Below are positions 1-25,391 of a stretch of DNA of 64,000 nucleotides, piece by piece. Position 1 is the stretch's first letter, and every line of letters starts with the position of its first letter. The stretch is from assembly GCF_000026545.1 (NCBI RefSeq), contig NC_011601.1. One strand, written 5' to 3'. The DNA is from Escherichia coli O127:H6 str. E2348/69. GTDB lineage: Bacteria; Pseudomonadota; Gammaproteobacteria; Enterobacterales; Enterobacteriaceae. Below the pieces are notes generated by a model. The model ran no database searches. It was not told the origin of the DNA and worked only from the letters and a program-made list of their open reading frames with translations. A program made the translations under genes and the position numbers.

Positions 1-1300
1 ATTCAGCCTGGCCTGGCAGATTCTGTTTGCTATGGTGCTGGGCATTCTCCTGGGAAGCTACCTGCACTACCATAGCGACAGCCGCGACTGGCTGGTCGTC
101 AATTTGCTCTCTCCGGCGGGTGATATCTTCATCCATCTGATCAAAATGATTGTTGTGCCGATTGTGATCTCCACGCTGGTGGTGGGTATCGCGGGTGTTG
201 GTGATGCCAAACAGCTCGGGCGTATTGGTGCGAAAACCATTATCTACTTCGAGGTGATCACCACCGTCGCCATCATTTTGGGGATCACTCTGGCGAACGT
301 CTTCCAGCCTGGTGCCGGGGTGGATATGTCGCAGCTGGCGACCGTCGATATCTCGAAATATCAGAGCACTACGGAAGCGGTACAAAGCAGTTCCCACGGC
401 ATTATGGGCACGATTTTGTCGCTGGTGCCGACGAACATCGTGGCGTCGATGGCGAAAGGCGAAATGCTGCCGATCATCTTCTTCTCGGTGCTGTTTGGTC
501 TGGGGCTTTCATCCCTGCCCGCGACGCATCGTGAACCGCTGGTGACCGTTTTCCGCTCCATCTCTGAAACCATGTTTAAAGTGACTCACATGGTGATGCG
601 TTATGCGCCGGTGGGTGTGTTTGCGCTGATTGCGGTGACGGTGGCTAACTTTGGTTTCTCTTCTCTGTGGCCACTGGCGAAACTGGTGCTGTTGGTGCAT
701 TTCGCCATTCTGTTCTTCGCGCTGGTAGTGCTGGGAATTGTGGCGCGCCTGTGCGGGTTAAGTGTCTGGATCCTGATTCGTATTCTGAAAGATGAGCTGA
801 TTCTGGCGTACTCCACTGCCAGCTCTGAAAGCGTGCTGCCGCGAATTATTGAGAAGATGGAAGCCTACGGAGCACCGGCGTCGATCACCAGTTTCGTGGT
901 GCCGACCGGTTACTCTTTTAACCTTGATGGTTCGACGCTGTATCAAAGTATTGCCGCTATTTTCATCGCGCAGTTGTATGGCATTGACCTGTCCATCTGG
1001 CAGGAAATCATTCTGGTGCTGACGCTGATGGTGACCTCGAAAGGGATTGCTGGCGTGCCGGGCGTGTCGTTTGTGGTGTTGCTGGCAACGCTGGGCAGCG
1101 TAGGGATCCCGCTGGAAGGTCTGGCGTTTATTGCCGGTGTTGACCGTATCCTCGACATGGCGCGTACTGCGCTGAACGTGGTGGGTAATGCGCTGGCGGT
1201 GCTGGTGATTGCCAAGTGGGAACACAAATTTGACCGTAAGAAAGCGCTGGCTTATGAGCGTGAAGTGCTGGGCAAATTTGATAAAACTGCGGATCAGTAA
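1..1300 (+). CDS. gltP: glutamate/aspartate:proton symporter, 5' end truncated by window edge
   Basis: Reading frame open from position 2; translation matches the DAACS-family transporter GltP; track ORF 32..1300 is the internal part. Confidence 0.93.
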   Translation, partial: FSLAWQILFAMVLGILLGSYLHYHSDSRDWLVVNLLSPAGDIFIHLIKMIVVPIVISTLVVGIAGVGDAKQLGRIGAKTIIYFEVITTVAIILGITLANVFQPGAGVDMSQLATVDISKYQSTTEAVQSSSHGIMGTILSLVPTNIVASMAKGEMLPIIFFSVLFGLGLSSLPATHREPLVTVFRSISETMFKVTHMVMRYAPVGVFALIAVTVANFGFSSLWPLAKLVLLVHFAILFFALVVLGIVARLCGLSVWILIRILKDELILAYSTASSESVLPRIIEKMEAYGAPASITSFVVPTGYSFNLDGSTLYQSIAAIFIAQLYGIDLSIWQEIILVLTLMVTSKGIAGVPGVSFVVLLATLGSVGIPLEGLAFIAGVDRILDMARTALNVVGNALAVLVIAKWEHKFDRKKALAYEREVLGKFDKTADQ

Positions 1301-1309
1301 CTGAAGATT

Positions 1310-1328
1310 GCCGGGGTTATCCCCCGGC
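1310..1328 (+). terminator. GC-rich hairpin just after gltP stop (gccgggg-ttat-ccccggc), candidate terminator
   Basis: Inverted repeat read directly; the downstream T-tract is weak. Confidence 0.4.
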
Positions 1329-1337
1329 AATGTGTTG

Positions 1338-1376
1338 ATGCCTGATGCGACGCTTGCCGCGTTTTATCAGGCCTAC
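1338..1376. repeat. REP (repetitive extragenic palindrome) unit
   Basis: gcctgatgcgacgc...ttatcaggcctac motif typical of E. coli REP elements. Confidence 0.6.
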
Positions 1377-1377
1377 C

Positions 1378-2067
1378 TTAACCGTTAGTTAATTTTTCAA
1401 ACTCTTCACACCCGGTATCAAACCCTTCCATACAGCTCAGATTCAACCAGTGCAGCGCCTTTTGTTTGTTCTTCTCGATAAAACCCTCTTCACCGTTTAA
1501 GAACATCATTCCCGCCCAGTATTCGGAATAACCGGTTCGGGAAATCGCGGAGCTACGTTTGAAATACCAGGTTGCTTTGTCATCGTCGGCCTTAATGCCC
1601 ACGCCGTTGGCGTAAATCAAACCAAGCAGCATTTGGGCATCGACGGCAGAGTCGTTCTCCAGATCTTCCGAGGCGTTTTCTAACAGCGAAATCGCCTTTG
1701 GATAATCCGGTTTACCCGCTTGCGTATTTACCAGAATATGCGCCAGCGTTACTTCACCTTCTTTACTGCCCGCTTGCGCTGCTTTCTCGGCAAGCACTTT
1801 TGCTTGTGGATAGTCCAGACTGACCGGATTGGTGATTTTGATCTGCGCCAACAGCGCGCAGGCATCGGCATCACCGCTGTCGGCGGCTTTCTGTGCCCAA
1901 TATTCGGCTTTGCTCAAATCGCCGGAGCTAAACCAGCTGTCGGCAAGAAAATATTGTGCGCGTCGGTCTCCGGCCTCTGCTGCCTTTAAATACTGGCTGC
2001 CAGGCTCGGAGTCGTTCGCGTGGGCAAAGAATGTCAAAAATAACATCAAAGTGATAATTTTTTTCAT
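1378..2067 (-). CDS. yjcO: Sel1/TPR-like repeat protein with signal peptide
   Basis: Track ORF 1378..2121 begins at TTG; ATG at codon 19 (MKKIITLMLFLTFFAHA) gives a signal peptide followed by Sel1-like repeats. Confidence 0.85.
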   Translation of the reverse strand: MKKIITLMLFLTFFAHANDSEPGSQYLKAAEAGDRRAQYFLADSWFSSGDLSKAEYWAQKAADSGDADACALLAQIKITNPVSLDYPQAKVLAEKAAQAGSKEGEVTLAHILVNTQAGKPDYPKAISLLENASEDLENDSAVDAQMLLGLIYANGVGIKADDDKATWYFKRSSAISRTGYSEYWAGMMFLNGEEGFIEKNKQKALHWLNLSCMEGFDTGCEEFEKLTNG

Positions 2068-2177
2068 TTTGATAATGAAGTTTGGTAGGGGAGAGACAGT
2101 ATAAAGTGTTCGGGTGGACAAAAAAACAACTGTAAAAAGACCTGAAAGCAGAATGAATTAATGCAATGTCAGGTTTT

Positions 2178-2882
2178 TTAATCCATCCGATGTTCCCCCT
2201 TTTCCATGGCGTCGCGATCAAAAAATCGCTGAATTTTTCCCTCGGACATCAATGCCGCTCGATCAGACATATGCGCGATGACATCGGCATCGTGACTGAC
2301 CAGCAGATATGTCATTTGGTGTTCCAGCTTAAGTTGATTCAACAAATTAAGGATTTCCGCTTGTACCGACATATCCAACGCCGAGGTGGGTTCATCCAGC
2401 AGAAGAAGTTGTGGTCGTAACAACAGGGCGCGAGCAATAACCACACGTTGCCGTTGACCACCGGAAAGCTGGTGTGGGTAGCGACGAGCGGCGTCGAAAG
2501 GCAAGCCAACCTGTTCCAGTGCAGTCTGGACGCGTTTTTCTATTTCTCTTTCGCCACGAATTTTGAGTGGTTCAGCCAGCGTTCGCCACAGAGTATGATT
2601 GGGATGCAACGAGGCATAGGGATCCTGAAACACCATTTGCACATTGCGGCGGAGATCGCCCTGAAAACGCATTCCTGGTTTGATGGTGTGCCCAAACAGT
2701 GACACCTGACCGTGCCAGTCGCGCTGTAATCCAGCAATTACGCGCAAAATCGTGGATTTTCCGCAGCCTGATTCGCCAATTAAACTAAATGTCTCTCCGG
2801 CATTAACCGAAAAACTGGCGGCAGAAACTGCGGTTTTCTCAGCAAAAGTCACCTGTAAGTGATTAATTTCAACAATCGTCAT
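2178..2882 (-). CDS. ABC transporter ATP-binding protein (short NikE/DppF-like), last gene of accessory ABC operon
   Basis: Walker A GESGCGKST, signature LSGGQRQR, Walker B LLLLDEPTSALD; ATG start overlaps the upstream ATPase gene by 14 nt. Confidence 0.9.
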   Translation of the reverse strand: MTIVEINHLQVTFAEKTAVSAASFSVNAGETFSLIGESGCGKSTILRVIAGLQRDWHGQVSLFGHTIKPGMRFQGDLRRNVQMVFQDPYASLHPNHTLWRTLAEPLKIRGEREIEKRVQTALEQVGLPFDAARRYPHQLSGGQRQRVVIARALLLRPQLLLLDEPTSALDMSVQAEILNLLNQLKLEHQMTYLLVSHDADVIAHMSDRAALMSEGKIQRFFDRDAMEKGEHRMD

Positions 2883-3705
2883 GGTATTTCTCCGGCGTCA
2901 TTGCCGTCCTGTCCAGCGTCGGCAGCATCTGCCCGTAAGTTTGTGCATTTGGGCGGCAAGTCCACAGTGTGCGCGTGTAAGGATGCGTTGCTGTAGGTAG
3001 CGCAGCAGCGTGCATTTCATCCACCTTATTTCCCTGATACATCACCAGCACCCGATGGCAAAATTGGGCAACTAATGGCAGGTCGTGACTGATCAGCAAC
3101 ATTGCCATCTGACGTTGTTCACACTGGGTAACCAGCAGTTCCAGAATCTGATTACGCAGGCGCACATCCAGTGCTGATGTTGGCTCATCGGCAATCAATA
3201 CCCGGGGATCGTTGATGAGCGCAATTGCAATCATCACTCGCTGCCCCATGCCGCCAGAAAGTTCACGAGGATAGCTTTGCAGTACTCGCGTATTGAGGCC
3301 GACAGCCTGAATTGCGGTGTTTATTTTCTCTTCTTTCTCGCGGCGGTTCAGACGTTGATGGAGCGTAAGCGCCTCTTCCAGTTGCGCTTTTACTGTCTTT
3401 ACTGGATTAAGCGCGTAACGCGGATCTTGCAATACCATCGCGATATCGTTACCGCGCAACTGTTGCCATCCACGCGCGTTAAGGGTGAGTGCATCACGCC
3501 CCAGAATGTTAAGTGTGTCCGCGGTTACTACACCCGGTTTACGCACCAGCCCCATCAGGGCGCGGGCGGTCATGGACTTACCTGAACCCGACTCACCGAC
3601 CAGCGCCAGACGTTCATTGCCTAATGTAAAACTGACATTGTTGACGACCCGGGACTCCGGATAATCGACGCAGAGATTGTTGATACTAAGACGTGAGTCA
3701 GTCAT
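2869..3705 (-). CDS. ABC transporter ATP-binding protein (short NikD/DppD-like)
   Basis: Walker A GESGSGKS, signature LSGGMGQR, Walker B LIADEPTSALD; start taken at the internal ATG (MTDSRLSINNL), since the track's 20-codon upstream extension overlaps the permease gene. Confidence 0.85.
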   Translation of the reverse strand: MTDSRLSINNLCVDYPESRVVNNVSFTLGNERLALVGESGSGKSMTARALMGLVRKPGVVTADTLNILGRDALTLNARGWQQLRGNDIAMVLQDPRYALNPVKTVKAQLEEALTLHQRLNRREKEEKINTAIQAVGLNTRVLQSYPRELSGGMGQRVMIAIALINDPRVLIADEPTSALDVRLRNQILELLVTQCEQRQMAMLLISHDLPLVAQFCHRVLVMYQGNKVDEMHAAALPTATHPYTRTLWTCRPNAQTYGQMLPTLDRTAMTPEKYHDDC

Positions 3706-4531
3706 GTTGAGGCTCCAGAACATCGCGCAAGCCATCACCCAGCAGATTAAAGGCCAGACTGGCAATTAAGATAATTGCGCCGGGAGCGGCGGCAATCCAC
3801 CATTGATCAAAAATGACCTGCATACCGTCGGCGATCATGGCTCCCCATTCCGCCATTGGCGGGCGAGCACCAAGCCCAAGAAAACCCAGGCCAGCAGCCG
3901 CCAGAATGATACCCGCTAAATCCAGCGCCAGACGGACAATGGCAGATGGCAGGCACAATGGCAAAATATGACCAGCCAGCAGACGCCTGCCGCGGATGCC
4001 CATCATTTCTGCGGCGGCAAGATAATCACTGTGTCGCAGACGTTGGATCTCACTCCGTGCCTGACGCGCATAAGCAGGCCAGGTGGTTAATGCCAGCGCC
4101 AGTGCGCCGTTAACCAGCCCCGGCCCCAGCATGGCAACAAAAGCAAAAGCCAGAATTAAACGCGGCATTGACATTACTACGTCAGTAAAACGCATCAGCA
4201 CGCGTTCCAGCCAGCCGCCGTAGTACCCGGCTAAAATGCCAATCAGCAGACCGACCGGGAGTGTAATGATTGTCACCAATGCCACCAGCCCCAGTGCCGG
4301 GCGGCTGCCGTAGATTAAACGTGAAAGTAGGTCTCGCCCGTAACTGTCAGTGCCGAGCCAGTGCTGACGACTCGGTGCTTGTAACCGCGCCGCCGCATCC
4401 TGCCAGTTAGGATCGTGAGGTGCCAGCCACGGCGCGAAGAGCGCAATTAGCATCAATAACAGGATAATTATCAACCCGCAAAACGCGGCGGGTGAATGGC
4501 GTAAACGGCGTAAAAAGAGAAACATCGGCAT
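3698..4531 (-). CDS. ABC transporter permease (DppC/NikC-like)
   Basis: 277 aa hydrophobic multi-helix protein in operon position; ATG start. Confidence 0.88.
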   Translation of the reverse strand: MPMFLFLRRLRHSPAAFCGLIIILLLMLIALFAPWLAPHDPNWQDAAARLQAPSRQHWLGTDSYGRDLLSRLIYGSRPALGLVALVTIITLPVGLLIGILAGYYGGWLERVLMRFTDVVMSMPRLILAFAFVAMLGPGLVNGALALALTTWPAYARQARSEIQRLRHSDYLAAAEMMGIRGRRLLAGHILPLCLPSAIVRLALDLAGIILAAAGLGFLGLGARPPMAEWGAMIADGMQVIFDQWWIAAAPGAIILIASLAFNLLGDGLRDVLEPQHD

Positions 4532-5580
4532 CAGCGTAACCTCGGATCGGTCAGCCGGACCAGCAGGTCGGTTAAGTTATTTATCAACACAAAGCAGACG
4601 CCAATCAGCAGCGTTCCTCCCATGATTGCTGTGGTATCACCCGCGAAGAGCGCTGTAGTGAGGTAGCGCCCAATACCTGGCCATGAAAAGACGGTTTCTG
4701 TCAGTACCGCGCCTTCCAGCATTGATGTATAGGCGAGGGCGATAACGGTGAGTAAGGTGCCGCGAATGTTGGGTAAAACATGACGTAGCAAAATTGTCAT
4801 CTCGCTGGCCCCTTTGGCGCGCGCCAGCAGAATATATTCTTTATTCATTTCGCCAAGACAGACGGAACGAGTCAGGCGCGTAATACTGGCGAGCGAGAAG
4901 TACGCCAGTAATAAAACCGGAAGTATCAAATGGTTGATTGCATTGGTAAATGCCTCGCGATCGCCAGAAAGCCACGTATCAATCAGCGCAAATCCGCTGC
5001 GGGGTTCTATGGTGAATTGATAAATATCATCCAGCCTGCCCGGCCCGGCACTCCATTGCAGTCTGGCGTAGAACAGCGCCAGCATCAGCAGACCAAGCCA
5101 AAAAACAGGGACGGAATTTCCCAGTAGAGTTAATGTTCGCACGGTGAAATCCAGCGGAGAACCGACATAACGGGCGCAAAGTACACCCGCAATGACGCCG
5201 ACAACAGCACCGACAATAAGCGCCAACGTTGCCAGTTCAATGGTCGCCGGGAATGCTGATAGCAAGTCCTGGAGTACCGGTTGCCCGGTGGAGCTGGCGA
5301 TGCCCAGATCGCCGTGTGCCAGATTCATCAGGTAATGCCAGAACTGGACGGCTAACGGTTGATCCAATCCTAACTGGTGGCGTACCTGATCATAGGTGGA
5401 CTGGCTGGCGTGATCGCCAACGATTTGTAGTACGCGATCGACCGGTGAGAGAGCCGAAAGCGCAAAGGTAATCAGCAGCAGGCCGAGTAGCGTCAGAGCA
5501 ACGGTAAACAGCCCTTGCAACAGCGCGAGCAGAGGGCGTTTGCCTCGCCATCTCGCGCGAGTGGAAAAAACGACAGACAT
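4531..5580 (-). CDS. ABC transporter permease (DppB/NikB-like)
   Basis: Hydrophobic permease; start taken at ATG MSVVFSTRAR, as the track extends 31 codons upstream; stop overlaps the next gene's start. Confidence 0.85.
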   Translation of the reverse strand: MSVVFSTRARWRGKRPLLALLQGLFTVALTLLGLLLITFALSALSPVDRVLQIVGDHASQSTYDQVRHQLGLDQPLAVQFWHYLMNLAHGDLGIASSTGQPVLQDLLSAFPATIELATLALIVGAVVGVIAGVLCARYVGSPLDFTVRTLTLLGNSVPVFWLGLLMLALFYARLQWSAGPGRLDDIYQFTIEPRSGFALIDTWLSGDREAFTNAINHLILPVLLLAYFSLASITRLTRSVCLGEMNKEYILLARAKGASEMTILLRHVLPNIRGTLLTVIALAYTSMLEGAVLTETVFSWPGIGRYLTTALFAGDTTAIMGGTLLIGVCFVLINNLTDLLVRLTDPRLR

Positions 5581-5607
5581 GATCTTTCCATACAGTGATA
5601 AATCAGC

Positions 5608-5632
5608 GGCTGGCCTGCAATACAGGCCAGCC
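5608..5632 (-). other. Intercistronic stem-loop between binding-protein gene and first permease gene
   Basis: 10-bp inverted repeat ggctggcctg / caggccagcc with 5-nt loop, read directly. Confidence 0.5.
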
Positions 5633-5679
5633 CTGGTACCGCGCCCGGTAATATGGCTGGACGCGAGTTGCATACAGGG

Positions 5680-7248
5680 TTATTTGGTTACCTGATCAAA
5701 CCAGACCATATCGGCATTCAACCCTTGTTGATACCCCTGCACATTATCACGCATGACAATTTGCGTTTTGCCTTGATCAATAAAGACATACGGGGAACTA
5801 CGTTGTAGTTCTTGTTGCATTTTCTTATACAAATCAAGACGTTTAGCGCTATCAGGTTCAGCGATGGCCGCCAGCGTTTCTTTGTTCAGTTCCGGGATTT
5901 TCCAGCCGTTTAACCCGGCAACGGTGCTGGATTTGCCATCGTTATAGGCGAAAGAGCTGGCGTTGGAATGTGCGTCAAAATAATCAGGCAACCACATACG
6001 AATGGCCCCCTGATGCTGGTGGGCGCGAACGCGAGAGTAGACCTGACTCCCTGCGGCTGGCAGCAAATCAACTTTTACACCGCCCTGAGCAAAGCTGGCC
6101 TGAATTGACTGCGCGATGGTAATAAATGGCGGTTTATTTTCGACATCAAGCGTGAAGTGCGGGTCTTTGATTCCGGCTTTAGCGAGGATCTCTTTTGCTT
6201 TGGCTGGATTAAAGGTAAACGGTGTTTCTTCCAGTGCTCCAGGAAAGCCCACGGGCAGGAAACTTTGATGGGTAAAATATTGTCCTTTTAAGAGATTTTT
6301 GGTGATGCCGTCGTAATCGACCAACCAGCGAGCGGCCTCCCAGAACGCAGGATTACTCATCAGCGGGTTATCCTTGTTACCGGTATTGAAGGCCAGGTAG
6401 TTCTGTTCGGCGGAGGCAATGCTCATCACTTTTACGCCAGGTTTACCCTGTAATGCATCGATTTGATCGGCTCCCAGATCACGAGCCATATCAGCATCAC
6501 CTTGTTGGATCAGCAGGCGACGCGTTGCCGGATCGGGAACATTTTTGATGATGACGTTTTTCAGTTTCGGGGCGCCGGTTGGTGAGCTGGCGTTGGCTTC
6601 CATCACGATGGCCTGATGCGGTTGGTAAGTACGCATTTTAAACGCGCCGCTGCCAGCGGAATGCATCTTCAGCCATTCATTACCAAAGTCGTTATTTTTG
6701 GCGTTTGGCGCAACCAGCTTCTCGTCAACAATTGAGGCGATTGGTGTGGAGAGAATATTCAGTGCCAGCGCCGGGCTGACGTCGGCACTCCATTGCACCT
6801 GGACGGTATGGTCATCGATTTTCTTCAACTGGCTGGCGATATTTTCCGGCTGCCATCCCAGCACATTGAGAATAAACGCACCGGATTTATTCAGTGTGAC
6901 AGCCCGGACATAAGAGTAAATCACATCTTCCGGGCGTACCGGATTACCAGAGGCAAATTTCGCATCGCTTTTCAGTTTTATGGTTAGCGTTTTGGCTGCT
7001 GGGTCAGCCTGCCAACTTTCCGCCAGAATCGGAGTGATTTTCGTCGGATCATTACGGTCCGGTTGTACTACGCGTTGATACAGACTTGGTACAGTCTGAA
7101 TACTTGAGAGTTCATTAGCTTCTGCCGGGTCCAGACTCACAATATCATCCAGTCCCTGGGCTACAACCAACGTATTAGGCGGTGTAGCGGCAACGGTTGT
7201 GGCGGAAATTGTGCTTAAAACCAGTAAAGGTAATAGTTTTTTAATCAT
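5680..7248 (-). CDS. Periplasmic substrate-binding protein, family 5 (OppA/DppA/NikA-like)
   Basis: 522 aa with N-terminal signal peptide MIKKLLPLLVLSTISATTVAA; first gene of a five-gene ABC operon; ATG start. Confidence 0.9.
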   Translation of the reverse strand: MIKKLLPLLVLSTISATTVAATPPNTLVVAQGLDDIVSLDPAEANELSSIQTVPSLYQRVVQPDRNDPTKITPILAESWQADPAAKTLTIKLKSDAKFASGNPVRPEDVIYSYVRAVTLNKSGAFILNVLGWQPENIASQLKKIDDHTVQVQWSADVSPALALNILSTPIASIVDEKLVAPNAKNNDFGNEWLKMHSAGSGAFKMRTYQPHQAIVMEANASSPTGAPKLKNVIIKNVPDPATRRLLIQQGDADMARDLGADQIDALQGKPGVKVMSIASAEQNYLAFNTGNKDNPLMSNPAFWEAARWLVDYDGITKNLLKGQYFTHQSFLPVGFPGALEETPFTFNPAKAKEILAKAGIKDPHFTLDVENKPPFITIAQSIQASFAQGGVKVDLLPAAGSQVYSRVRAHQHQGAIRMWLPDYFDAHSNASSFAYNDGKSSTVAGLNGWKIPELNKETLAAIAEPDSAKRLDLYKKMQQELQRSSPYVFIDQGKTQIVMRDNVQGYQQGLNADMVWFDQVTK

Positions 7249-7422
7249 ATGCTTCCCAATCCCTAAAATTACTTTGAGGTTATTAATATGCTATCAGACG
7301 GGGGTTCGCTGCATTAATCGCGCCAGAATATCCCGTTAATAGAACGAGTTAAACGGTCGATGATTTCTCACCTTACCGAAATTTTGTTTATCAAATGTAA
7401 AGTATTATTACGTTAGGCCGCG

Positions 7423-7450
7423 ATGAGAATTGAGTAAAGATAATTCTCAT
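7423..7450. promoter_or_regulatory. Perfect 9-bp inverted repeat (atgagaatt N10 aattctcat) upstream of the ABC operon, candidate operator
   Basis: Palindrome read directly, about 175 bp upstream of the binding-protein start; no known regulator assigned. Confidence 0.3.
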
Positions 7451-7533
7451 TTGCAATCGTGACAGGAATAGAAGAACAACCGAGAAGACGTCGCTAATAA
7501 CCAGAATGGGCTGGTTTGACTGCGCAGGTATGT

Positions 7534-7570
7534 ATAAAAAAATCCGGAAACAGAGAGTCGTTTCCGGATT
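7534..7570 (-). terminator. Rho-independent terminator of fdhF
   Basis: Stem aatccggaaac / gtttccggatt followed by a T-run on the minus strand, ~50 nt after the fdhF stop. Confidence 0.8.
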
Positions 7571-7622
7571 GATACAAAGGCGTTGGGTAATATCGCCGCT
7601 TTTAACGTGAGTTTACGCGGTA

Positions 7623-9770
7623 TTACGCCAGTGCCGCTTCGCGCAGGCGAGTTTTCAACTTGTTGTACTCGTCAATCACGTACTGCTCGGCGGCGCGCTG
7701 ATCGGCGATCGGCTCGACGCGCACGGCGCAGTATTTGTATTCCGGCGTTTTCGTAATCGGGCTTAAGTTTTCGGTAACCAGCTCGTTACAGGCACCAATC
7801 CACCACTGGTAGGTCATGTAAATCGCCCCTTTGTTCGGACGATCGCTGACCTGCGCACGGGTGATAATTTTGCCTTTACGCGAGTGCACCCAAACCAATG
7901 CCTCATCTTCAATACCCAGACGTTTGGCGTCTTCGGTATTGATTTGTGCGTAGCCAGGTTCATCAGCCAGCGCCGCCAGTGCCGCACAGTTACCGGTCAT
8001 CGAACGGCAAGAGTAGTGACCAACTTCACGCACCGTTGACAGTACCATCGGGTACTCGTCGGTGAGTTTGTCGATTGGCGCGACCCAGTCGCAGGTGAAG
8101 AACTGCGCCAGACCGTTCGGGGTATCAAACTTCTCTTTAAACAGATAAGAAGTCCCCTGATCGGCATCTGAAGTATCCCGGCAAGGCCACTGAATGAAGC
8201 CCAGTTCGCCCATTTTTTCGTAAGTCGCACCGTAGAAATCCGGGCACAGATGACGCAACTCATCCCAGATCTCCTGGGTGTTGTTGTAGTGCATCGGATA
8301 ACCCATACGGGTGGCGATTTCACTGATAATCTGCCAGTCCGTTTTCAGATCCCATTTCGGTTCAACCGCTTTGAAGAAACGCTGGAAGCCACGGTCAGCC
8401 GCAGTAAACACGCCTTCATGCTCGCCCCACGACGTTGACGGTAAAATAACATCCGCCGCCGACGCGGTTTTGGTCATAAAGATGTCCTGAACGATGACCA
8501 GTTCCAGATCTTCAAAGGCTTTACGTACTGCCGACAGCTCCGCGTCAGTTTGCAGCGGATCTTCGCCCATAATGTACGCGGCACGCACTTCGCCATGCGC
8601 TGCGCGGTGCGGCAGCTCGCTGATGCGATAGCCGGTATGAGCAGGCAGGCTTTCCACGCCCCAGGCTTTGGCGAATTTCTCGCGGTTAGCCGGATCTTTC
8701 ACGTACTGGTATCCCGGATACGTATCCGGCAGCGCGCCCATATCGCAGGCACCCTGCACGTTGTTCTGACCACGAACCGGGTTTACACCCGCATGCGGCT
8801 TACCGAGGTTACCAGTCAGCATCGCGAGGCTGGTCAGAGAACGCACGGTTTCCACGCCCTGGTAGAACTGGGTTACACCCATGCCCCACAGGATGGCGGC
8901 GCTTTTCGCCTGGGCATACATCCGCGCCGCCTGACGAATCTCACTGGCGCTGACGCCGGTGATATCTTCAACCGACTCCGGCGTGTAGCCTTCAACGATT
9001 TTACGATACTCTTCAAAGCCTTCTGTACGGGAAGCGACGAAAGCTTTGTCGTACAGGTTTTCTTCAATAATGACATGGCCCATCGCATTCAACAGCGCGA
9101 TGTTCGAGCCGTTTTTCAGTGCAATGTGCATGTCAGCAATGCGCGCGGTTTCAATTTTGCGCGGATCGCAGACGATAATTTTCGCCCCGTTACGTTTAGC
9201 GTTAATTACGTGATTCGCCACGATTGGGTGGGAATCCGCCGGGTTGTACCCGAAAACGAACACTAAATCGGTATTATCAATTTCGTTAATAGCATTGCTC
9301 ATTGCGCCATTACCGACCGATTGGTGCAGACCTGCAACCGATGGGCCGTGTCAGACACGAGCGCAGCAGTCAACGTTATTGGTACCAATAACGGCGCGCG
9401 CAAATTTTTGCATTACATAGTTGGTTTCGTTACCCGTACCACGCGAGGAGCCGGTCGTCTGGATGGCATCCGGACCGTACTTCTCTTTGATGGCGCTCAG
9501 GCGCTCGGCAACGTAATTCAGTGCCTCATCCCAGGAAACAGGTTCGAGTTTGCCGCCACGCTGGCGACGGATCATGGGGGTTTTCAGGCGCGGGGTCAGG
9601 ATCTGGGTATCGTTAATGAAATCCCAGCCATAATAACCCTTCAGACACAGGGTACCCTGGTTGGTTTTCCCCTGCGCTGCCTCCGCCCGGACGATTTTGC
9701 CGTTATCGACGACCAGGTTGATTTTGCAACCTGATGCGCAATAGGGGCAAACCGTGACGACTTTTTTCAT
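7623..9770 (-). CDS. fdhF: Formate dehydrogenase H, selenocysteine-containing molybdoenzyme
   Basis: Track ORFs 9351..9770 and 7623..9302 are in the same frame across a single TGA; 716 codons total; N-terminal Cys cluster CPYCASGCK. Confidence 0.95.
9305..9353 (-). other. In-frame UGA selenocysteine codon (9351..9353) with downstream SECIS region
   Basis: TGA flanked by ...DCCARV and HGPSVAGLHQSVGNG...; bacterial SECIS elements lie immediately 3' of the UGA. Confidence 0.85.
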
Positions 9771-9810
9771 CGGTCTCGCTCCAGTTAATCAAATCACGCA
9801 TACGCGCTCT

Positions 9811-9827
9811 CGACTACAGTATGCATC
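9811..9827 (-). promoter_or_regulatory. Sigma-54 (-24/-12) promoter of fdhF
   Basis: Minus-strand TGGCAT-N5-ATGCA matches the TGGCAC-N5-TTGCA spacing, about 40-55 nt upstream of the fdhF start. Confidence 0.75.
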
Positions 9828-9899
9828 TTTTATGCCACATTTTATTTGGGGTCATTCCCTGATATTACGGGCACTATTTATTCAAAACTCTGACGAAAA

Positions 9900-9955
9900 A
9901 CAGGCTGTCGTCAGTTTTGACGTGACGAAACGAAATACCGCGTGACAGCCATCAC
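9900..9955 (-). promoter_or_regulatory. Putative enhancer (FhlA upstream activating sequence) for fdhF
   Basis: Inverted-repeat-rich segment (tgtcgtca / tgacgtgacg / cgtgacagcc) about 80-130 bp upstream of the sigma-54 element; assignment by position only. Confidence 0.4.
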
Positions 9956-9967
9956 GCGGCAGACATT

Positions 9968-11434
9968 TTATTTTTTCTCGACGACGGGAGCCGCCTGATA
10001 CCCGCCGCCCAGCGATTTCATCAACTGAATGCTTTGGATCACCCGGCGGCTGTCCAGCATCAGTAATGACATCTCTTCGGCAAGTACTGGCAACCGGGCT
10101 TCAGTGGCCTGTAAGCGGCTGGTTAAGCCGCGTTGATAGGCGGCCTCGGCAGCGCGCTGGGTGAAGCGCGTTGCTTCCACGCGTTCAGCCTGCATCTCTC
10201 GCTCGTCGTTGAGCGTTTGCAGACGCGTGCCGTTGACGGCAACGTCGCGCACCGCATTCAGCACTGACTGGTTGTAACGTTCAATCATCATGTTGCTGGC
10301 GGCGCGAATGCCTTCGAGATTGGCATTCAACCGTCCACCGTCAAACAGCGGCAATTTCAGACCCGGGATAAAGTTGAACTGGCGACTGGTTTTTTTGAAT
10401 AAGGTATCCAGGTGGATAGAATCCAGGCCGAAAAACGCTTTGATATCAAAGCTCGGGTAGAACAACGCCCGCGCGGAATCCACCTGATCTAATGACGCCT
10501 GAACATACCAGCGCATCGCTTGCAGATCCGGGCGTCTGGCGAGCAACTCATAAGAGAGTGTCGCCGGAATACCGGTCTGGACTCGTGGTAATGCCACCGG
10601 TTTGATCTCCGGCATATCGCTGGCTCCCGCGCCAATCAATGCGCGCAGAGATTCCCGCGTTTCAGTGATTTGCCCTTTGACGGCAGCAATTTGTTTATCG
10701 ACCGCCAGAATCTGTGCCCGCGCGCCGTGGAAAGGCACTTGCGCTTCCAGACCGTGCGCCACTTTACTCTGGTGCGCTTTCACCGCGTAATCAATCACAT
10801 CGCGAGTTTGTTCTAACAGATCGAGCATCTGATAGCTGGCCTGCATACTGTAATAAAGCTGCGCTACGCCCGTGGTCAGCGATAGCTCTACTGCTGCGGT
10901 TTCTGCCAGCGCGGCATTATGCGCGCCAATGGCGGCAGCAACCGCTGAGCGATGCACACCCCACAAATCGAGATCCAGTCCGGCAAACAAACCGACTGTG
11001 GCTTCCGTATAGTACGGCCCGTCCATCCCCAGTGCGGGCGCATCCATCGCATAAGGGCTTAAAAAGCCGTTCGCCGAGACACGTTGGCGGTTGAGCATCC
11101 CTAACGCTGCGACCTGTAATTGTGAACCGGCATCTAACAAATCGGCCTGCGACTGCGCTTTTTCTTCCCGCAGTTTCGCTTCGGCGAGGGTGTGTGAACC
11201 ACTTAGCGTCTGTTGGACCAGTGCATCCAACTGCGGGTCATTGAGTTGTTTCCACCACTGCGCCTGCGGCCAACCGGAGCTGGCAAGATGAATATCATCG
11301 GCCAGTTTGATTTGTTCCGGTTTGAGCTGTTGATGAGGCGCAGAATCCTTACGTACCAGGGCACAGCCGGAAATCAGCGTCGTGCTGCCGAGAATGCTGC
11401 ACAACAGCAGGCGTGAAAGTTGACGATTGATCAT
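9968..11434 (-). CDS. mdtP: Outer-membrane efflux channel (TolC/OprM family) of putative efflux pump
   Basis: 488 aa with lipoprotein-type signal (LISGCA); downstream of mdtO. Confidence 0.88.
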   Translation of the reverse strand: MINRQLSRLLLCSILGSTTLISGCALVRKDSAPHQQLKPEQIKLADDIHLASSGWPQAQWWKQLNDPQLDALVQQTLSGSHTLAEAKLREEKAQSQADLLDAGSQLQVAALGMLNRQRVSANGFLSPYAMDAPALGMDGPYYTEATVGLFAGLDLDLWGVHRSAVAAAIGAHNAALAETAAVELSLTTGVAQLYYSMQASYQMLDLLEQTRDVIDYAVKAHQSKVAHGLEAQVPFHGARAQILAVDKQIAAVKGQITETRESLRALIGAGASDMPEIKPVALPRVQTGIPATLSYELLARRPDLQAMRWYVQASLDQVDSARALFYPSFDIKAFFGLDSIHLDTLFKKTSRQFNFIPGLKLPLFDGGRLNANLEGIRAASNMMIERYNQSVLNAVRDVAVNGTRLQTLNDEREMQAERVEATRFTQRAAEAAYQRGLTSRLQATEARLPVLAEEMSLLMLDSRRVIQSIQLMKSLGGGYQAAPVVEKK

Positions 11435-13482
11435 TGCGTGGCTCCTTGTACCTGTTCCGTGGCGGGCGTTAATGCCGGGGCTGTCCAGTCTGGCAAGCGG
11501 GCGAAAAGCTGGCAGACGTGTTGCTCCTGTTTTAATAAGGTCGGCAGGATGGCCTGCGAGGCGGGTGTTTCTTCAAGCGTTATTTGAGGAGAACGGCTGA
11601 GTGCAGTTGCCAGACCGGCGGCGTATTTCTCCAGTGCGTCGGCAAACTGACCTGCTCTGTCCGGCTGTAGTGCGTTATCCAGAGCCTGCGCCGAGTTCCA
11701 GGTTGCATCCCAAGCGTGAAGAATATCGCGGCCCTGACGAATAACCGTTTGCGAACGTTCAATCAGTAAAGCGCGTTCTTCGCTGTCCAGTTGACGCTCC
11801 AGCGCCACGCGTTGGCACATCTCTTCACAGGCATTAAACGCCGCATGCAGACCTATGCGAATTTGCAGATAAGTGCGCAGAGCCGTGACTTCCTGCTGGC
11901 GTGGGATCCGCATTACTTTACTCAACATACCCAGCGCGCCAGCCAGTTTTTGCGGCAGCGTGCGCGCTTCACTTTCAGGCCAGACAAAGGTGTAAATCAC
12001 CGCGGACACCACGGTACCAATGATGATACCCAGGGCGCGATCGCGAATTTCCACCAGGTCGTACACCGGGCCAAAAACGTTTTCGAGCGTGGCGAGCGCG
12101 AAGGTGACCACCATCTGTGTGCCGATATAAGAAGAGCGTTCAGAGCTGGTGGCAATCCATGCGCCCAACAGGAAAATCGGTGCCAGCACAAACAGCAATT
12201 CGACAATATTGTCCAGCCAGGGCATGACCAGCAGCGTGAATAACAGCGCCAGAATTGCACCGCAGAAGGCACCGCCAAAACGCAGCGCCATTTTCTGATA
12301 CGACGAACCAACATTCGGGTTAGCGACGATCACGCAGGTCAGCATACAGGTGTGAATGCCTTCCCAGTCCACGCCGCTGTAGAAGGTGTAACAGATCAAA
12401 CAGGCGAGCAGCGTTTTTACCGCGTAGCGCATATAGTCTGGATTGGTAAAAGCGTCGGCGACCATTGATGGCGGTTTGGCGGCGGGCGTTGGCGGCGTAT
12501 TCGGGTCCATCTGACCCAGTTGCAATAACGTCTGGCAGATATTCTCCAGGTTACATTCCCGTGCCGCCATCGCTTCACTTTCACTGATCCGCCAGTCGCT
12601 TTGCCAGCACTGACCTTCGGTAATGGAATGCTGCAGCTTGTTGATTTCTGAAGCTAATTTTTGTCGGAATTCAATAATTGCCTGAGAATCAGCAAAAGAG
12701 GTGGGATCGTAGCGATTCAGCGTCGAGTAAATGTAGGTTACCGTTGTCACGCAGCTTTGCCACCATGCGCTCTGGGTTCGCCAGTTGGCATCGTCCGCGA
12801 GGCAAAAGACATTGAGTTTTTGCAGCGCCAGCGCCTCTCTTTCAATCCGCGTTTCGGGTAGCGGTGCGAGGCTGTCCGTCAGGTGGCTAATGGCATCATC
12901 AAGCCGATCATTAAGCGCCTGATGCATCTGCGTAATGGCACGACTGGGAAACCACAGCACGCCGATTAACGTCATCAGCAAGGTTGGATAGAGGCCAACA
13001 ACGATACACCAGAGCGTTAAGCGCACGACCACTTCCGGATAGTCGAGCATGGCGGGGAAGGTTTGCCCGTAAATAGCGACAATGGCGACGGCGAAAAAGA
13101 CCAGCCCCAACCGATGGGTGCGCATCAAAAACATACCGCCCATCAGGATCGGTCCGGCGATGATCAATCGGATCAACGGTTCGCCGTATGACCATTTGTA
13201 GATCAAAAACAGGCTGCCGATCTCCAGCATCGTGGCGACCACAAACAAGATCGCCACAAATTTGGTGTAAAACGCGTTGGACTGAATACCGTAAAACAGC
13301 ACTGCCAGCGATAACGCCACAAAAGGGATCTCAAAAGTCATCGAGATCAGAATCACCAGCAGGCAGCCTACCCAGAGTTGCATAGTCTGCGGCACGCGGC
13401 CTGGTCGCCGCTCGCTTAACTCTTCATGAAAGAACGCCAGCAGCCTGACCACCGGTAATGGCAGGGAGTTGAGCGCGCTCAT
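11431..13482 (-). CDS. mdtO: Inner-membrane efflux component (AaeB/fusaric-acid-resistance family)
   Basis: 683 aa polytopic membrane protein; 4-nt overlap with mdtP. Confidence 0.88.
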   Translation of the reverse strand: MSALNSLPLPVVRLLAFFHEELSERRPGRVPQTMQLWVGCLLVILISMTFEIPFVALSLAVLFYGIQSNAFYTKFVAILFVVATMLEIGSLFLIYKWSYGEPLIRLIIAGPILMGGMFLMRTHRLGLVFFAVAIVAIYGQTFPAMLDYPEVVVRLTLWCIVVGLYPTLLMTLIGVLWFPSRAITQMHQALNDRLDDAISHLTDSLAPLPETRIEREALALQKLNVFCLADDANWRTQSAWWQSCVTTVTYIYSTLNRYDPTSFADSQAIIEFRQKLASEINKLQHSITEGQCWQSDWRISESEAMAARECNLENICQTLLQLGQMDPNTPPTPAAKPPSMVADAFTNPDYMRYAVKTLLACLICYTFYSGVDWEGIHTCMLTCVIVANPNVGSSYQKMALRFGGAFCGAILALLFTLLVMPWLDNIVELLFVLAPIFLLGAWIATSSERSSYIGTQMVVTFALATLENVFGPVYDLVEIRDRALGIIIGTVVSAVIYTFVWPESEARTLPQKLAGALGMLSKVMRIPRQQEVTALRTYLQIRIGLHAAFNACEEMCQRVALERQLDSEERALLIERSQTVIRQGRDILHAWDATWNSAQALDNALQPDRAGQFADALEKYAAGLATALSRSPQITLEETPASQAILPTLLKQEQHVCQLFARLPDWTAPALTPATEQVQGATQ

Positions 13483-14513
13483 TATTGCGGCTCAAGATTA
13501 GCGACTGCCGAAGCGCCGATGCGGAACATTTCCGGGTCAGGTTTTTCAACCATGATTTTGACCGGAAAACGCTGGGCAACGCGGACCCAGTTAATAGAAC
13601 GAGACACTTTCGGCAGGCCGCCCAGCACCAGGCCGCCGTCATCCGGTAGCACGCCGTAGCCAATCGAATCCACTTTACCCTCGAAGGTTTTGCCGCTGTT
13701 GCTCATCAGGCGAATCGTTGCGGGTGTACCTGAGCGAATATTTTTCAGTTCGGTTTCGCGGAAGTTGGCAATCACGTACCAGTGACGAGTGTCGATTAGG
13801 GTGAAAATAGGGCGCATCGCAGATGCAAACTGCCCGACGGAGGTTTTGAGGGAAATGACCCGGCCATCAAACGGCGCGCGAACGGTCGCCATTTCCAGAT
13901 GCAGTTTGGTCAGGGCAATATCTGCTTCCACTGCCGCACGCTGGGCAACTAATGCATCCACGCCGCTAACGGCGCTGGCGGCTGACTGCGCTTGTAACAA
14001 TACGGCATTAAGGTCCGCTTCTGCCGCACGCTGTGCGGTTCTTGCACGGTCAACCTCTTCCGCAGAAACAAAACCTTCTCGCAGTAGCGGTTCGGTACGG
14101 CGTAACGTATCGCTGGCTTGTTTAGCGGCGGCACGGGCTTTTTCTACCGTGGCATTAACCGAGTCGGCACCAAACTGTTGTGCGTCAACGCTACGCTGGG
14201 TGAGCATAATTTGCTTATCCAGCGCTGCGAGGGAGGCTTCAGCTTTCGCCAGATTGGCTTCGTACGGGCGCGGATCAATGCGGAACAGCAAATCGCCCTG
14301 TTTCACCGCCTGGTTGTCGGTGACCGCCAGTTCTACAATGCGACCGCTGACTTCCGGCACCACATCAATGGTATCTGCTGACGCGTAAGCGTCATTAGTT
14401 GATGGCGCACTGTCTACGCGCCAGATAACGAAAACAAGGGCAACCAGCGCCAACGCAACCACTAACAGAGCAGGGAATTTACTGCGAGGAGCTTTTTTCG
14501 GCGTACTTTCCAT
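13482..14513 (-). CDS. mdtN: Membrane fusion (HlyD/EmrA-like) efflux component
   Basis: 343 aa with single N-terminal TM segment and coiled-coil region. Confidence 0.88.
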   Translation of the reverse strand: MESTPKKAPRSKFPALLVVALALVALVFVIWRVDSAPSTNDAYASADTIDVVPEVSGRIVELAVTDNQAVKQGDLLFRIDPRPYEANLAKAEASLAALDKQIMLTQRSVDAQQFGADSVNATVEKARAAAKQASDTLRRTEPLLREGFVSAEEVDRARTAQRAAEADLNAVLLQAQSAASAVSGVDALVAQRAAVEADIALTKLHLEMATVRAPFDGRVISLKTSVGQFASAMRPIFTLIDTRHWYVIANFRETELKNIRSGTPATIRLMSNSGKTFEGKVDSIGYGVLPDDGGLVLGGLPKVSRSINWVRVAQRFPVKIMVEKPDPEMFRIGASAVANLEPQ

Positions 14514-14531
14514 GAGCGCGTCTCAAATAGA

Positions 14532-14807
14532 TTAGAAAAATACCAGCCAGAACAGCATGGCGTAGAGAGCAAAAAGGGCGGTATAAATAATTCCGACAAA
14601 TGCCAGATTGATATTTGTCCGCTGAATAATTCGCCTCGTGATGAGCGTCAAAATAAGGCTGGCAATGGCGCAGAAAAACCAGCCGGGATAATAAGCGCCG
14701 ATCACCGGGATTGCCGGAGATAATGAGCATCCCGAAACCATGAAGACGGGAATTATCCAGGCTGTTTTTTTGAGTTGCATCGCCATGCGAGAGAGAACTG
14801 TTGGCAT
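14532..14807 (-). CDS. ytcA: Small lipoprotein upstream of mdtNOP
   Basis: Internal ATG MPTVLSRMAMQLKKTAWIIPVFMVSGC with lipobox; track ORF extends 16 codons upstream. Confidence 0.7.
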   Translation of the reverse strand: MPTVLSRMAMQLKKTAWIIPVFMVSGCSLSPAIPVIGAYYPGWFFCAIASLILTLITRRIIQRTNINLAFVGIIYTALFALYAMLFWLVFF

Positions 14808-14983
14808 ATTAAATACATCCTGTCTGCTGCGAACAATATCTGTAGTGAATATCAATATCCATTGAAGGCGTCAGTATGGCTATTTTCTCGATGAATAAAA
14901 ATAGCTTTATTCAGCCACCACATTCATAACTTATATATTTTATGTATTAATTTGCTGTATATATTTTTAAAATAAATGTTTTT

Positions 14984-15001
14984 GGGGGCTTCAGCGCCCC
15001 C
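14984..15001. terminator. GC hairpin (gggggc-ttcagc-gccccc) flanked by T/A runs, possible terminator after yjcS
   Basis: Read directly; U-tract geometry is imperfect. Confidence 0.35.
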
Positions 15002-15015
15002 AAAAGCGAGTGACA

Positions 15016-17001
15016 TTAATTTGGGGTTACGATATTCACCCACAAATCGAAATTATCCAGACAGGCGATAATTTCTTCCAGTTTCGCGCCATTGCCAATA
15101 ATTTTGGCTTTCTTCGCTTTCACCAGATCGGCCATTTTTGCCTGTCCGGTCAGCACGGCGTGCAGATCTTCACGGCTGATGTAGAAAGAGGCGTCAGCTT
15201 GCGGTTGCAGTGTTTTACGGTAGTTAAGCACGCTATTGTTGAGTGAGAGGTTCAGGTTATCGTTGTCAGAGAGATTGAAGTTCAGGCTGATGGATTTGCC
15301 CGCGGCTTTCTCACTGTCCAGACGAACAGCCATGTAATCAAACAGCATCTCGACAGTCATACTCTTGATAGTGTCAGGAGAGGCGGTGCTGGCGTGTTCG
15401 ATTTTCTTCACGCCCTCACGAAGTTCTTTCGCTCCCGTCAGGTAGAAGCCGCGCCAGGTCGCTGATTCGGCCTGATAACCCAGTTGTTCGAAGGTATCGG
15501 CCTGTAGGTTTTTCGCCACCTGGTCTCCCGGATTGGCAGCAATCACCTGTTTCAGCAGTTCAGAGGCCCAGCGGTAGTCGCCCTGGTTATAGGCTTCACG
15601 CGCCAGATTGATAGCATGTGCGGAACCTCCCAGCGCTTTGACATAACGTTTACCCATATCGACCTGGCCATACGGATTCAGGTTTGCTGGGTTACCGTCG
15701 TAGTAGCCGAGGTAAAAGTTATATACCGCGCGAGCGTTATGACTGACGGAGCCATAATAGCCATGGCTGGCCCAGTTTTTATCCAGCGTTTCCGGCAGAT
15801 GAATCATGTTGCCGATTTCATTCATGGTGTAACCCTGGTTCGCCAGGTGCAGGGTTTGGTCGTGAATATACCTGATGGTGTCGCGATATTTTCCAATATA
15901 ATCATTGATATGCTGATTACCCCAGACCGGCCAGGTGTGCGGCATAAACAGTACTTCTGCTTGTGATCCCCACTTATCCAGCGTTTCGTTTAGGTAATTG
16001 GTCCACTTCGCGGTATCGCGGGTTTTCGCGCCACGCAGGGTGTAGAAGTTATGCAGGGTATGGGTGCTGTTTTCCGCTGTGCACAGGGCTTTCAACGCCG
16101 GAATATAGAGGTGCATTTCAGACGGCGCTTCGCTGCCTGGAGCCATCAGGAATTCGAAATCCAGCCCGTCGATATTGAGTTTCTCACCTGTCTTGGTGAT
16201 AGATCGCGTCGGCGCGATAATTGTCGGGTCGCCGGTAGTAAGCGTAACACCCAGCCCGTTGCCGATATCTCCCTGTGCATTATGCGGGAGTAGCAGGCCG
16301 TAAGAGTAAAATGCACGGCGACTCATGATATTACCCGCCAGCACGTTTTCACTGATGGCTTCGTCCATAAAGCCTGCCGGGGCGATGATCTGCACTTTGC
16401 CTGCTTTTACATCGGCTTCTGAGATAATACCTTTTACGCCGCCATAGTGGTCAGTGTGGCTGTGGGTGTAGATAACGGCCACAATCGGTTTTTGTGGGCG
16501 GTGTTTGAAATAGAGATTAAGGCTGGCTTTTGCTGCATTTGGCGTCACCAGCGGGTCAATGACGATGATGCCCGTATCACCTTCAATGAAGGTGATGTTC
16601 GAGATATCCTGGCTGCGCACCTGATACATGCGGTCGGTGACTTTAAACAGACCGGAGATGCCGTTTATCTGCGACTGACGCCACAGGCTGGGGTTTACGG
16701 TTTCCGGCGCAGCGGCATTAATATCAAATTTGTAATCGTCCGCGCGGTAGTAAACTTTACCGTTCGCATCACGCAGAATACCTTCATCCAGCAGCGGAGC
16801 GATAAATCCACGCTGCGCATCGTCAAAATCCTGACGATCGCTAAACGGTAATGATTTGGCGTAATTCTGATTAACCTGTTGGGTATATTGAGTGGCGGCT
16901 TTCGCTTCATCTGTTGCGTAAGCGGTATTTATCATCATGCCGCTGGCGGCAGTGAACGCAATAACAATCCTGCTCAAACGGAATAACCGAGAGTTATTCA
17001 T
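15016..17001 (-). CDS. yjcS: Alkyl/aryl sulfatase-like metallo-beta-lactamase-fold protein
   Basis: Signal peptide plus HxHxDH motif ([11 protein letters not shown]); start chosen at MNNSRLF, 4 codons inside the track ORF. Confidence 0.85.
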
Positions 17002-17273
17002 ATAAATCTCCATTTATCATTTATGTCGTAAATATGTAATCCATGCAAAATACGTCATTTAAAGCTGGCGTTATCATAATTGGGAATTTGCGAATTTAAT
17101 AAGTGGAAGTGTGAGCGGAACGATCCATTTCATTAGGTATTTGTGCTGAAGAGGGAAAATTGCAGTAGAACTATCATTTCTGGGAATAATATGGGCTGTT
17201 TTATGTAACTATTATATATATTGTACCTGTCGTTGGCACCGCGAGACATTGCGCTACTGTGCCAACGCTTTAC

Positions 17274-18882
<1,609 letters not shown>

Positions 18883-18892
18883 GTTCAATTCC

Positions 18893-19873
18893 TTACTTAC
18901 TGATAAGACGGTCAAGGGCGACAGCCGCGATAATTAATCCGCCCATCACCACCAGTTGGTAATAGGTTTGTACCTGCAAAATATTCAGACCGTTGTTGAT
19001 GGTGCCGATGATCAACCCGCCAATCACCACAGAGAAAATGCGCCCCTTGCCGCCGAAGAAACTGGTGCCGCCAATGATGGCGCTGGCAATGGCATAGGTT
19101 TCAAAACCCATACCGGCAAGCGGTTCTGCGGCACCGAGTCGTGCAGTTGAGACGACGCCTGCCAGACCTGCACAAACACCGGAGATGATAAACACCACCA
19201 GAATGTGGAATTTCACGTCAATCCCGGAATAGAACGCCGAGTTTTTGTTGCCGCCCAGTGCGTAGATGTTGCGCCCGAGCCGCATACGCGTTGTCAGAAA
19301 CCAAAGGATGAGCGCGACAATTAGCGAGAAGATAACGGGGACAGGTATCCCAATTACGCTGGCGGCAAAGAAGTTCACGAAGTCAAATGAGAAGCCGTAT
19401 ACCGAGTTGGCATCGGAGATCACCAGCGTGATCCCACGGAAAATGGCGTTGGTACCAAGGGTGATAATAAATGGGTGTAGCCCCGTCCAGTTGACCAGGC
19501 AGCCGTTGATCGCCCCCAGTGCGCCGCCAACCAGTACACCGCCAATCAGCGCCGCGAGAAACGGGTCAACACCTGCCAACATCAGTTTGGCGGTCACCAT
19601 ACCGGAAAGCGCCAGAATCGCGCCAACCGAGAGGTCGATACCAGCGACCAGGATAGCGAAAAACTCGCCCATGCCGATCAATACCGTCACGGAGCTTTGC
19701 ACAAAAATCTGGGTAATATTATTGGTGGTCAGAAAATATTCTGGCGACAGCGAACCAAAAATGGCGACGATGATCGCCAGGATAAAAAAGGTGCCGTATT
19801 TATCCCAGAACAGCGCAAAGTTGAACGGTTTCTTCTCGCTCGCTTCGCTTTTTACTCGTGTGGTAAAGCCCAT
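18893..19873 (-). CDS. alsC: D-allose ABC transporter permease
   Basis: 326 aa ribose-type permease. Confidence 0.9.
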   Translation of the reverse strand: MGFTTRVKSEASEKKPFNFALFWDKYGTFFILAIIVAIFGSLSPEYFLTTNNITQIFVQSSVTVLIGMGEFFAILVAGIDLSVGAILALSGMVTAKLMLAGVDPFLAALIGGVLVGGALGAINGCLVNWTGLHPFIITLGTNAIFRGITLVISDANSVYGFSFDFVNFFAASVIGIPVPVIFSLIVALILWFLTTRMRLGRNIYALGGNKNSAFYSGIDVKFHILVVFIISGVCAGLAGVVSTARLGAAEPLAGMGFETYAIASAIIGGTSFFGGKGRIFSVVIGGLIIGTINNGLNILQVQTYYQLVVMGGLIIAAVALDRLISK

Positions 19874-21384: not shown

Positions 21385-21511
21385 AAATAACCTCTCTGCA
21401 CGAAATATCGTATTATTGCCTGATGGGCTACACTTATCAGGTCTACGTTCAGGTTATTTTGTTGGCCGGATAAGACACTTCATTAGCATCACTATCCGGC
21501 ATCATTCAGTT

Positions 21512-22447
21512 TTATTGAGTGACCAGGATTGAATCGACCAGTTTAAATTCCGGTGCTTTATCCAGCGGGATAACCTTGCCGGATTTCTCAGCGTCAACCA
21601 TCAGCTTCAGACCCGTTGCACCGATATCCGCCGGGTTCTGGGCAACCGTCGCGGTCATTTGTCCGGCTTCCACCATTTTGCGGGCTTCCGGAATTCCATC
21701 TGTACCGACGACCAACACTTTGCCCGTTTTTCCAGCGTTTGCGACTGCCTGAGCAACACCCATTGCCATCGTGTCATTCGCGCAATAGATCGCTTTAATA
21801 TTCGGATTACGTTGCAACACGTTAGTGGCGACATCCAGTGCTTTAATGCGGTCCCAGTCGGCAGGCTGGCTGGCGACAAGCTTGATCTGGCTTGCTTTTT
21901 TGAAGGCTTCGGTGGCACCATTACGACGCGCTTCACCGGAGGCGTTACCGGCTTTACCCTCAATGATTGCGACTTCACCCCCTTCGGCACCCAGCTTGTC
22001 AATAATCAATGACGCGCCTTTCGCCCCGACGGCAACATTATCGGTGGTGACAAAACCTTCCACATTACCGCCTGCTTTTTTCAGATTATCCATGTCGATT
22101 TTTTCATCGAGATTGACCAGATAAATGCCTTTTTTCCATGCGCGGGCAACAGGCATGACCAGGTTCACTGAGGATAATGGTGCGAAGGCGATACCTTTGT
22201 AATTTTTATTACTGAGATCTTCAAATAACTGCAATTGAGATTGAAAATCGCCTTCTGAAGGAGAGGCAAAAATATCAACGCTGACGCCCAGCGTTTTTGC
22301 TTCATCTTCAATGCCTTTTTTCATATCTACCCAAAATGGATTGGAGAGTGTTTTCAATACGACGGCATATTCGGCGGCAGCAAAAGCGCTGGTTGACAAC
22401 ATTAAGCCCACGAGTGTGCCGCTGAAATATTTCAGATATTTATTCAT
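21512..22447 (-). CDS. alsB: D-allose periplasmic binding protein
   Basis: Signal peptide; ribose-binding-protein family; start at MNKYLKYF. Confidence 0.9.
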   Translation of the reverse strand: MNKYLKYFSGTLVGLMLSTSAFAAAEYAVVLKTLSNPFWVDMKKGIEDEAKTLGVSVDIFASPSEGDFQSQLQLFEDLSNKNYKGIAFAPLSSVNLVMPVARAWKKGIYLVNLDEKIDMDNLKKAGGNVEGFVTTDNVAVGAKGASLIIDKLGAEGGEVAIIEGKAGNASGEARRNGATEAFKKASQIKLVASQPADWDRIKALDVATNVLQRNPNIKAIYCANDTMAMGVAQAVANAGKTGKVLVVGTDGIPEARKMVEAGQMTATVAQNPADIGATGLKLMVDAEKSGKVIPLDKAPEFKLVDSILVTQ

Positions 22448-22505
22448 AATCATGTTCTCACGGTAAGGGGAGAGGTAACTCCGCGATGGCGGAATTACCT
22501 TTTTC

Positions 22506-24199: not shown

Positions 24200-24267
24200 G
24201 ATTCATCCACTACTTGCATGGATGAGTAATGACTAATGTGGATAGAGTTTCTTTTTGAGGTTGGCTA

Positions 24268-25390: not shown

Positions 25391-25391
25391 A

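Follow-up and report, generated by a model that had tools for sequence, protein, structure and literature searches.

Selenocysteine recoding at UGA-140 of fdhF in Escherichia coli E2348/69, a known site followed by a SECIS element

The UGA codon at position 140 of fdhF, together with the SECIS that follows it, is the founding case and prototype of bacterial selenocysteine (Sec) insertion, and has been known since the 1980s. The gene encodes formate dehydrogenase H (FDH-H), which contains molybdopterin and selenocysteine and belongs to the formate-hydrogen lyase complex, and E. coli has two other selenoprotein genes, fdnG and fdoG. These paralogues, which encode FDH-N and FDH-O, share with fdhF the mechanism of a UGA and an intragenic SECIS read by SelB, but their products are of ~1015 aa, periplasmic and respiratory, and they lie elsewhere on the chromosome. 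UGA140 of fdhF has been described as a Sec codon, and the experimental basis for selenium incorporation at this UGA, and for the function of the hairpin with SelB, comes from the identical E. coli sequence (PMC4513850; PDB entries of the selenoprotein). For the fdhF element, the reported recoding efficiency in vivo is ~30-40% (PMC4513850). The published SECIS is 40 nt long and has a 17-nt upper stem-loop (nt 15-31) that starts 11 nt after the UGA, in which the bulged U17 and the apical-loop residues G23 and U24 are the SelB contacts (PMC8659212).

Here, we compare with these systems the fdhF locus of E. coli E2348/69 (O127:H6), which lies in a window of 64,000 nucleotides, the whole stretch of DNA that was analysed (Table 1). 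A preliminary description of this DNA, made from the letters alone, had proposed that a single in-frame TGA splits fdhF, that both flanks are in frame and match a formate dehydrogenase, and that the TGA is a Sec codon with a SECIS immediately 3' rather than the mark of a pseudogene. A mechanical list of open reading frames does divide the minus strand at this point: one frame of 139 aa (9351..9770) runs up to the stop, and another of 559 aa (7623..9302) resumes at an internal ATG. When the minus strand of 7623..9770 is translated in a single frame, it gives 715 codons with one internal stop, codon 140, and a terminal TAA. Codon 140 is TGA, for which the plus strand reads 'tca'. The list and the translation thus agree with the description of a single TGA that splits the gene.

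Table 1. Coordinates of the fdhF locus in the window and of the selenocysteine genes in the source genome; positions are those of the window unless an accession is given.
Feature	Position	Strand	Description and basis
fdhF CDS	7623..9770	minus	715 aa including Sec140, plus TAA stop; TIGR01591, PDB identity, RefSeq
UGA codon 140, Sec	9351..9353	minus	Sole internal stop in frame; X140 of solved FDH-H; PMC4513850
SECIS	9314..9353	minus	40 nt counted from the U of the UGA; Rfam RF01988 match and ViennaRNA fold
Minimal 17-nt upper stem-loop	9323..9339	minus	GGUUGCAGGUCUGCACC, nt 15-31, SelB-binding part; fold '(((.(((....))))))', PMC8659212
Sigma-54-type -24/-12 promoter-like site	9822..9837	minus	TGGCATAAAAGATGCA, ~50 nt upstream of the fdhF ATG; pattern scan
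Five-gene peptide/nickel-class ABC transporter	2178..7248	minus	Between yjcO and fdhF, directly downstream of fdhF
selB	NZ_LT827011.1 3893001-3894845		RefSeq, without pseudogene flag
selA	NZ_LT827011.1 3894842-3896233		RefSeq, without pseudogene flag
tRNA-Sec (selC)	NZ_LT827011.1 3986720-3986814		ARAGORN tRNA-SeC, anticodon tca; without pseudogene flag
selD	NZ_LT827011.1 1910711-1911754		Adjoins topB; RefSeq, without pseudogene flag

The two flanks of the TGA belong to one protein, as had been proposed, and that protein is a formate dehydrogenase. For protein comparisons, the fdhF product was used as a query with X placed at residue 140. All of its residues (715/715) are those of chain A of PDB entry 1AA6, with a score of 1669.8 bits, and the same chain is present in 1FDI, 1FDO, 2IV2 and 7Z0T. 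The product also lies above the cut-off of the equivalog model NCBIfam TIGR01591 (formate dehydrogenase subunit alpha), scoring 1089 bits against a required 666.25, in an alignment that joins fdhF residues 6-685 to profile positions 1-672 of 672. This full-length profile match and the identity to a solved enzyme place the product in the FdhF/TIGR01591 Fdh-alpha/molybdopterin oxidoreductase group. FDH-N (1kqf) was recovered as a homologue of the product (E 5e-45). At the nucleotide level, E. coli E2348/69 (O127:H6) matches positions 7400..10000 with 100% identity, and of the 5426 complete E. coli genomes, 5419 have a match to this region.

Were the TGA an ordinary nonsense mutation, fdhF would be a pseudogene in which translation ends after 139 residues, and the split made by a mechanical ORF finder is what such a gene would produce. 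However, the TGA falls exactly at the Sec position of the crystallised enzyme: the PDB chain named 'formate dehydrogenase H' has the non-standard residue X at 140, aligned with codon 140 of the gene in the window. In addition, the 575 codons 3' of the TGA are intact and encode the same residues as the functional protein, and the gene has a SECIS in a genome with all four sel genes (see below). Of 5426 complete E. coli genomes, 5419 contain the 55-nt segment that runs across the UGA and the SECIS, with at least 99% identity in 5411 records, and such retention is not expected of a random nonsense mutation. We therefore reject the pseudogene, to which we assign a probability close to nil and which is in effect refuted by the conservation and by the identity to a solved selenoprotein. 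As a recoding site, codon 140 is an in-frame UGA in an otherwise intact open reading frame, at the Sec position of solved FDH-H. Together, the alignment at Sec140, the SECIS, the sel genes and the conservation uphold the original view of UGA-Sec decoding.

The SECIS is found directly 3' of the UGA, where it had been predicted. Because fdhF is on the minus strand, the element has lower window coordinates than the codon (9314..9350); the range first given for the site, 9305..9353, covers the UGA and the SECIS correctly and came without the strand (minus). Rfam RF01988 (SECIS_2) matches 9304..9358 on the minus strand over the full model (1-55), scoring 87.1 bits where the gathering score is 70, with an E value of 1.8e-17. 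Given this E value and a score over the gathering threshold, the match is beyond chance. With the Rfam covariance models, no second SECIS was found in the window.

From the UGA on, the SECIS RNA reads UGACACGGCCCAUCGGUUGCAGGUCUGCACCAAUCGGUCGGUAAUGGC, and the ViennaRNA fold of this 40-mer is a hairpin with interruptions (-13.1 kcal/mol). In the lower stem, nt 6-10 and 12-13 are paired with nt 33-34 and 36-40. A spacer of 11 nt, CACGGCCCAUC, leads from the UGA to the upper stem-loop, GGUUGCAGGUCUGCACC, which folds with one bulged U (out of two adjacent U residues) and a GGUC tetraloop. In the window, U17 corresponds to 9337, G23 to 9331, U24 to 9330 and the GGUC loop to 9329..9332. In the program's fold the bulge falls on U18 instead of U17; these neighbouring residues are equivalent partners for A29. 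The predicted geometry of the hairpin in the window matches that of the published SECIS (PMC8659212), so that the UGA is followed on its 3' side by a stem-loop that fits the SECIS model and has the bulged U as well as the G and U of the loop.

Folding energy did not set this hairpin apart: compared with shuffled sequences, it had no significant excess stability (z = -1.23), and 25 of 200 shuffles equalled or exceeded it. Since the stability of the hairpin is not discriminating, what identifies the SECIS is its match to the covariance model, together with sequence identity. The RF01988 family model already encodes the covariation of the SECIS across species.

Decoding of UGA as Sec also depends on trans-acting components, and the sel genes were looked up by synteny in NZ_LT827011.1, a record of E. 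coli E2348/69 with 0 mismatches to window 400..64000. Over window 400..64000, RefSeq annotates no sel gene, and no tRNA genes were found within the window. In NZ_LT827011.1, selA, selB, selC (anticodon UCA) and selD are all encoded (Table 1). The preliminary description had put forward two checks, folding of the RNA 3' of the UGA and a search of the genome for selABCD; both were run, and the first returned a hairpin with a bulged U and a GGUC loop rather than its absence, while the second recovered selA, selB, selC and selD.

A classic insertion site of the LEE pathogenicity island is selC, and in this strain selC adjoins the island: it is immediately followed by an IS3 remnant and by the type III secretion island, whose genes include espF, escF and espB (NZ_LT827011.1 3986720..3988333). 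Two other observations concern the part of the same record at about 3945946..3961078, outside the window, where a gene for a 'reverse transcriptase family protein', possibly a retron, lies between slmA and pyrE, and yicC and dinD are separated by an ~11-kb island that carries an integrase and a primase gene.

Instead of being served by the Sec machinery, the UGA could be read by a near-cognate tRNA (e.g. one for Trp or Cys), which would yield an enzyme that lacks selenium. It is general knowledge that UGA is misread at a low level in E. coli independently of a SECIS, which lends this idea some plausibility, and control constructs in PMC4513850 address such misreading. Yet a SECIS is present at fdhF and fits its family model, the genome has the full set of sel genes, and residue 140 is non-standard in the structures solved for the identical protein. 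On the SECIS, the sel genes and residue 140 of the structures, we reject near-cognate read-through of UGA-140, which we regard as improbable in the extreme.

We consider it virtually certain that the minus strand of 7623..9770 is E. coli fdhF and that its UGA-140 is decoded as Sec, in a manner dependent on the SECIS and SelB, to give the full 715-residue enzyme; beyond the unremarkable folding energy, nothing of substance speaks against it. For the binding of SelB and the steps of decoding, we infer the following course of events from established knowledge and from experiments on the same E. coli sequence. SelD would make selenophosphate, which SelA would use to convert the selC tRNA, first loaded with serine, to Sec-tRNA(Sec). 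As the ribosome nears UGA-140, a complex of SelB, GTP and Sec-tRNA(Sec) would bind the apical stem-loop of the SECIS through contacts with the bulged U17 and with G23/U24. Competing with release factor 2, the tethered complex would place Sec-tRNA(Sec) in the A site of the ribosome. UGA-140 would then be read as Sec, and translation would continue to produce the 715-residue selenoenzyme.

It had also been suggested that an automated annotation could miscall this gene. That is true of a plain ORF finder, but not of RefSeq in the E2348/69 genome, where fdhF is a single uninterrupted CDS of 2148 nt across the TGA (WP_001300547.1), without a pseudogene flag. Because RefSeq keeps fdhF as one CDS, the standard pipeline does not miscall it here. 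Among the matches listed, all 18 rows from other genomes (18/18) name fdhF, in one case as 'selenocysteine-containing'; the rows are silent on a pseudogene flag. The risk of a miscall for fdhF thus exists in principle and is not realised in the RefSeq record of this genome.

When the locus is set beside fdhF of E. coli K-12 (b4079), no residue of the protein departs from the solved K-12 enzyme, and the 55-nt UGA/SECIS segment is 100% identical in K-12-derived and other E. coli genomes. The 11-nt spacer, the 17-nt minimal element, U17, G23/U24 and the neighbouring gene mdtP (as annotated by RefSeq) are all shared. The strain background alone differs (EPEC E2348/69, O127:H6), and an ABC transporter between yjcO and fdhF leaves the recoding element untouched. 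Relative to the bacterial SECIS family of Rfam (RF01988, SECIS_2), the full model 1-55 is covered and no difference was detected. The fdhF recoding site is already known in every respect, with nothing novel about it and no unusual feature of the element.

Transcription of fdhF is under the control of sigma-54 and FhlA. A scan with the pattern TGGCAYNNNNNWTGCW returned a single match in the window, the promoter-like site TGGCATAAAAGATGCA upstream of fdhF, where 0.55 matches would be expected by chance. With that many chance matches expected, the site is weak on its own; as a candidate promoter, it is consistent with the sigma-54/FhlA dependence of fdhF.

On its other side, fdhF is followed by the ABC transporter, which comprises a substrate-binding protein of 522 aa, two permeases and two ATPases. 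This transporter is found between yjcO and fdhF in 1043 of 5426 complete E. coli genomes (~19%), including this EPEC strain; on the K-12 map, yjcO is directly adjacent to fdhF. In NCBIfam, its genes come closest to transporters of nickel (NikA-E/Opp2), dipeptides and opines, with every match below the curated cut-off. The position of the transporter beside fdhF, a gene of a nickel-dependent pathway (formate-hydrogen lyase), may be a coincidence. A functional link to formate-hydrogen lyase, for example through the supply of nickel for hydrogenase 3, along with co-regulation with fdhF, could be imagined, and we think it very unlikely.

Several other features of the window were noted along the way. 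The melB gene, which lies between melA and yjdF in K-12, is missing here, and the 3' ends of melA (plus strand) and yjdF (minus strand) overlap by 4 nt (51694..53696, with the junction at about 53046..53049). Of 5426 genomes, 1264 have this junction in one piece, among them an ST131 strain and the E. coli type strain ATCC 11775; the remaining genomes with a match to melA-yjdF align with the two halves separately or only in part, at a median of two places per genome. An Rfam match to the 'sRNA' STnc630 (41831..41996, plus strand, 182 bits) overlaps the 29-codon gene pmrR at 41900..41989. As it coincides with the annotated pmrR, this 'sRNA' is the mRNA of pmrR, and it overlaps pmrB, a gene of the opposite strand, at the 3' end of the latter.

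Two intergenic matches to naRNA4, a nucleoid-associated RNA derived from REP/BIME elements, lie between phnE and phnD (33529..33609, plus strand) and between yjdN and yjdM (36086..36163, minus strand). The phnE gene itself (32731..33510, minus strand) is annotated as intact and encodes a permease of 259 aa; in K-12, phnE is known to be disrupted by an 8-bp duplication. Finally, the gene for a lysyl-tRNA synthetase at 61340..62857 (minus strand) has the RefSeq label 'lysS', yet it occupies the position of lysU, the inducible paralogue, next to dtpC. This label is probably an issue of annotation naming.

Essentially every E. coli genome has UGA-140 and its SECIS, and RefSeq handles fdhF correctly. 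The site advances no open question. The fdhF UGA matters only as a quality check: genuine recoding is recognisable from raw sequence, and the split open reading frame at this locus is not a pseudogene.
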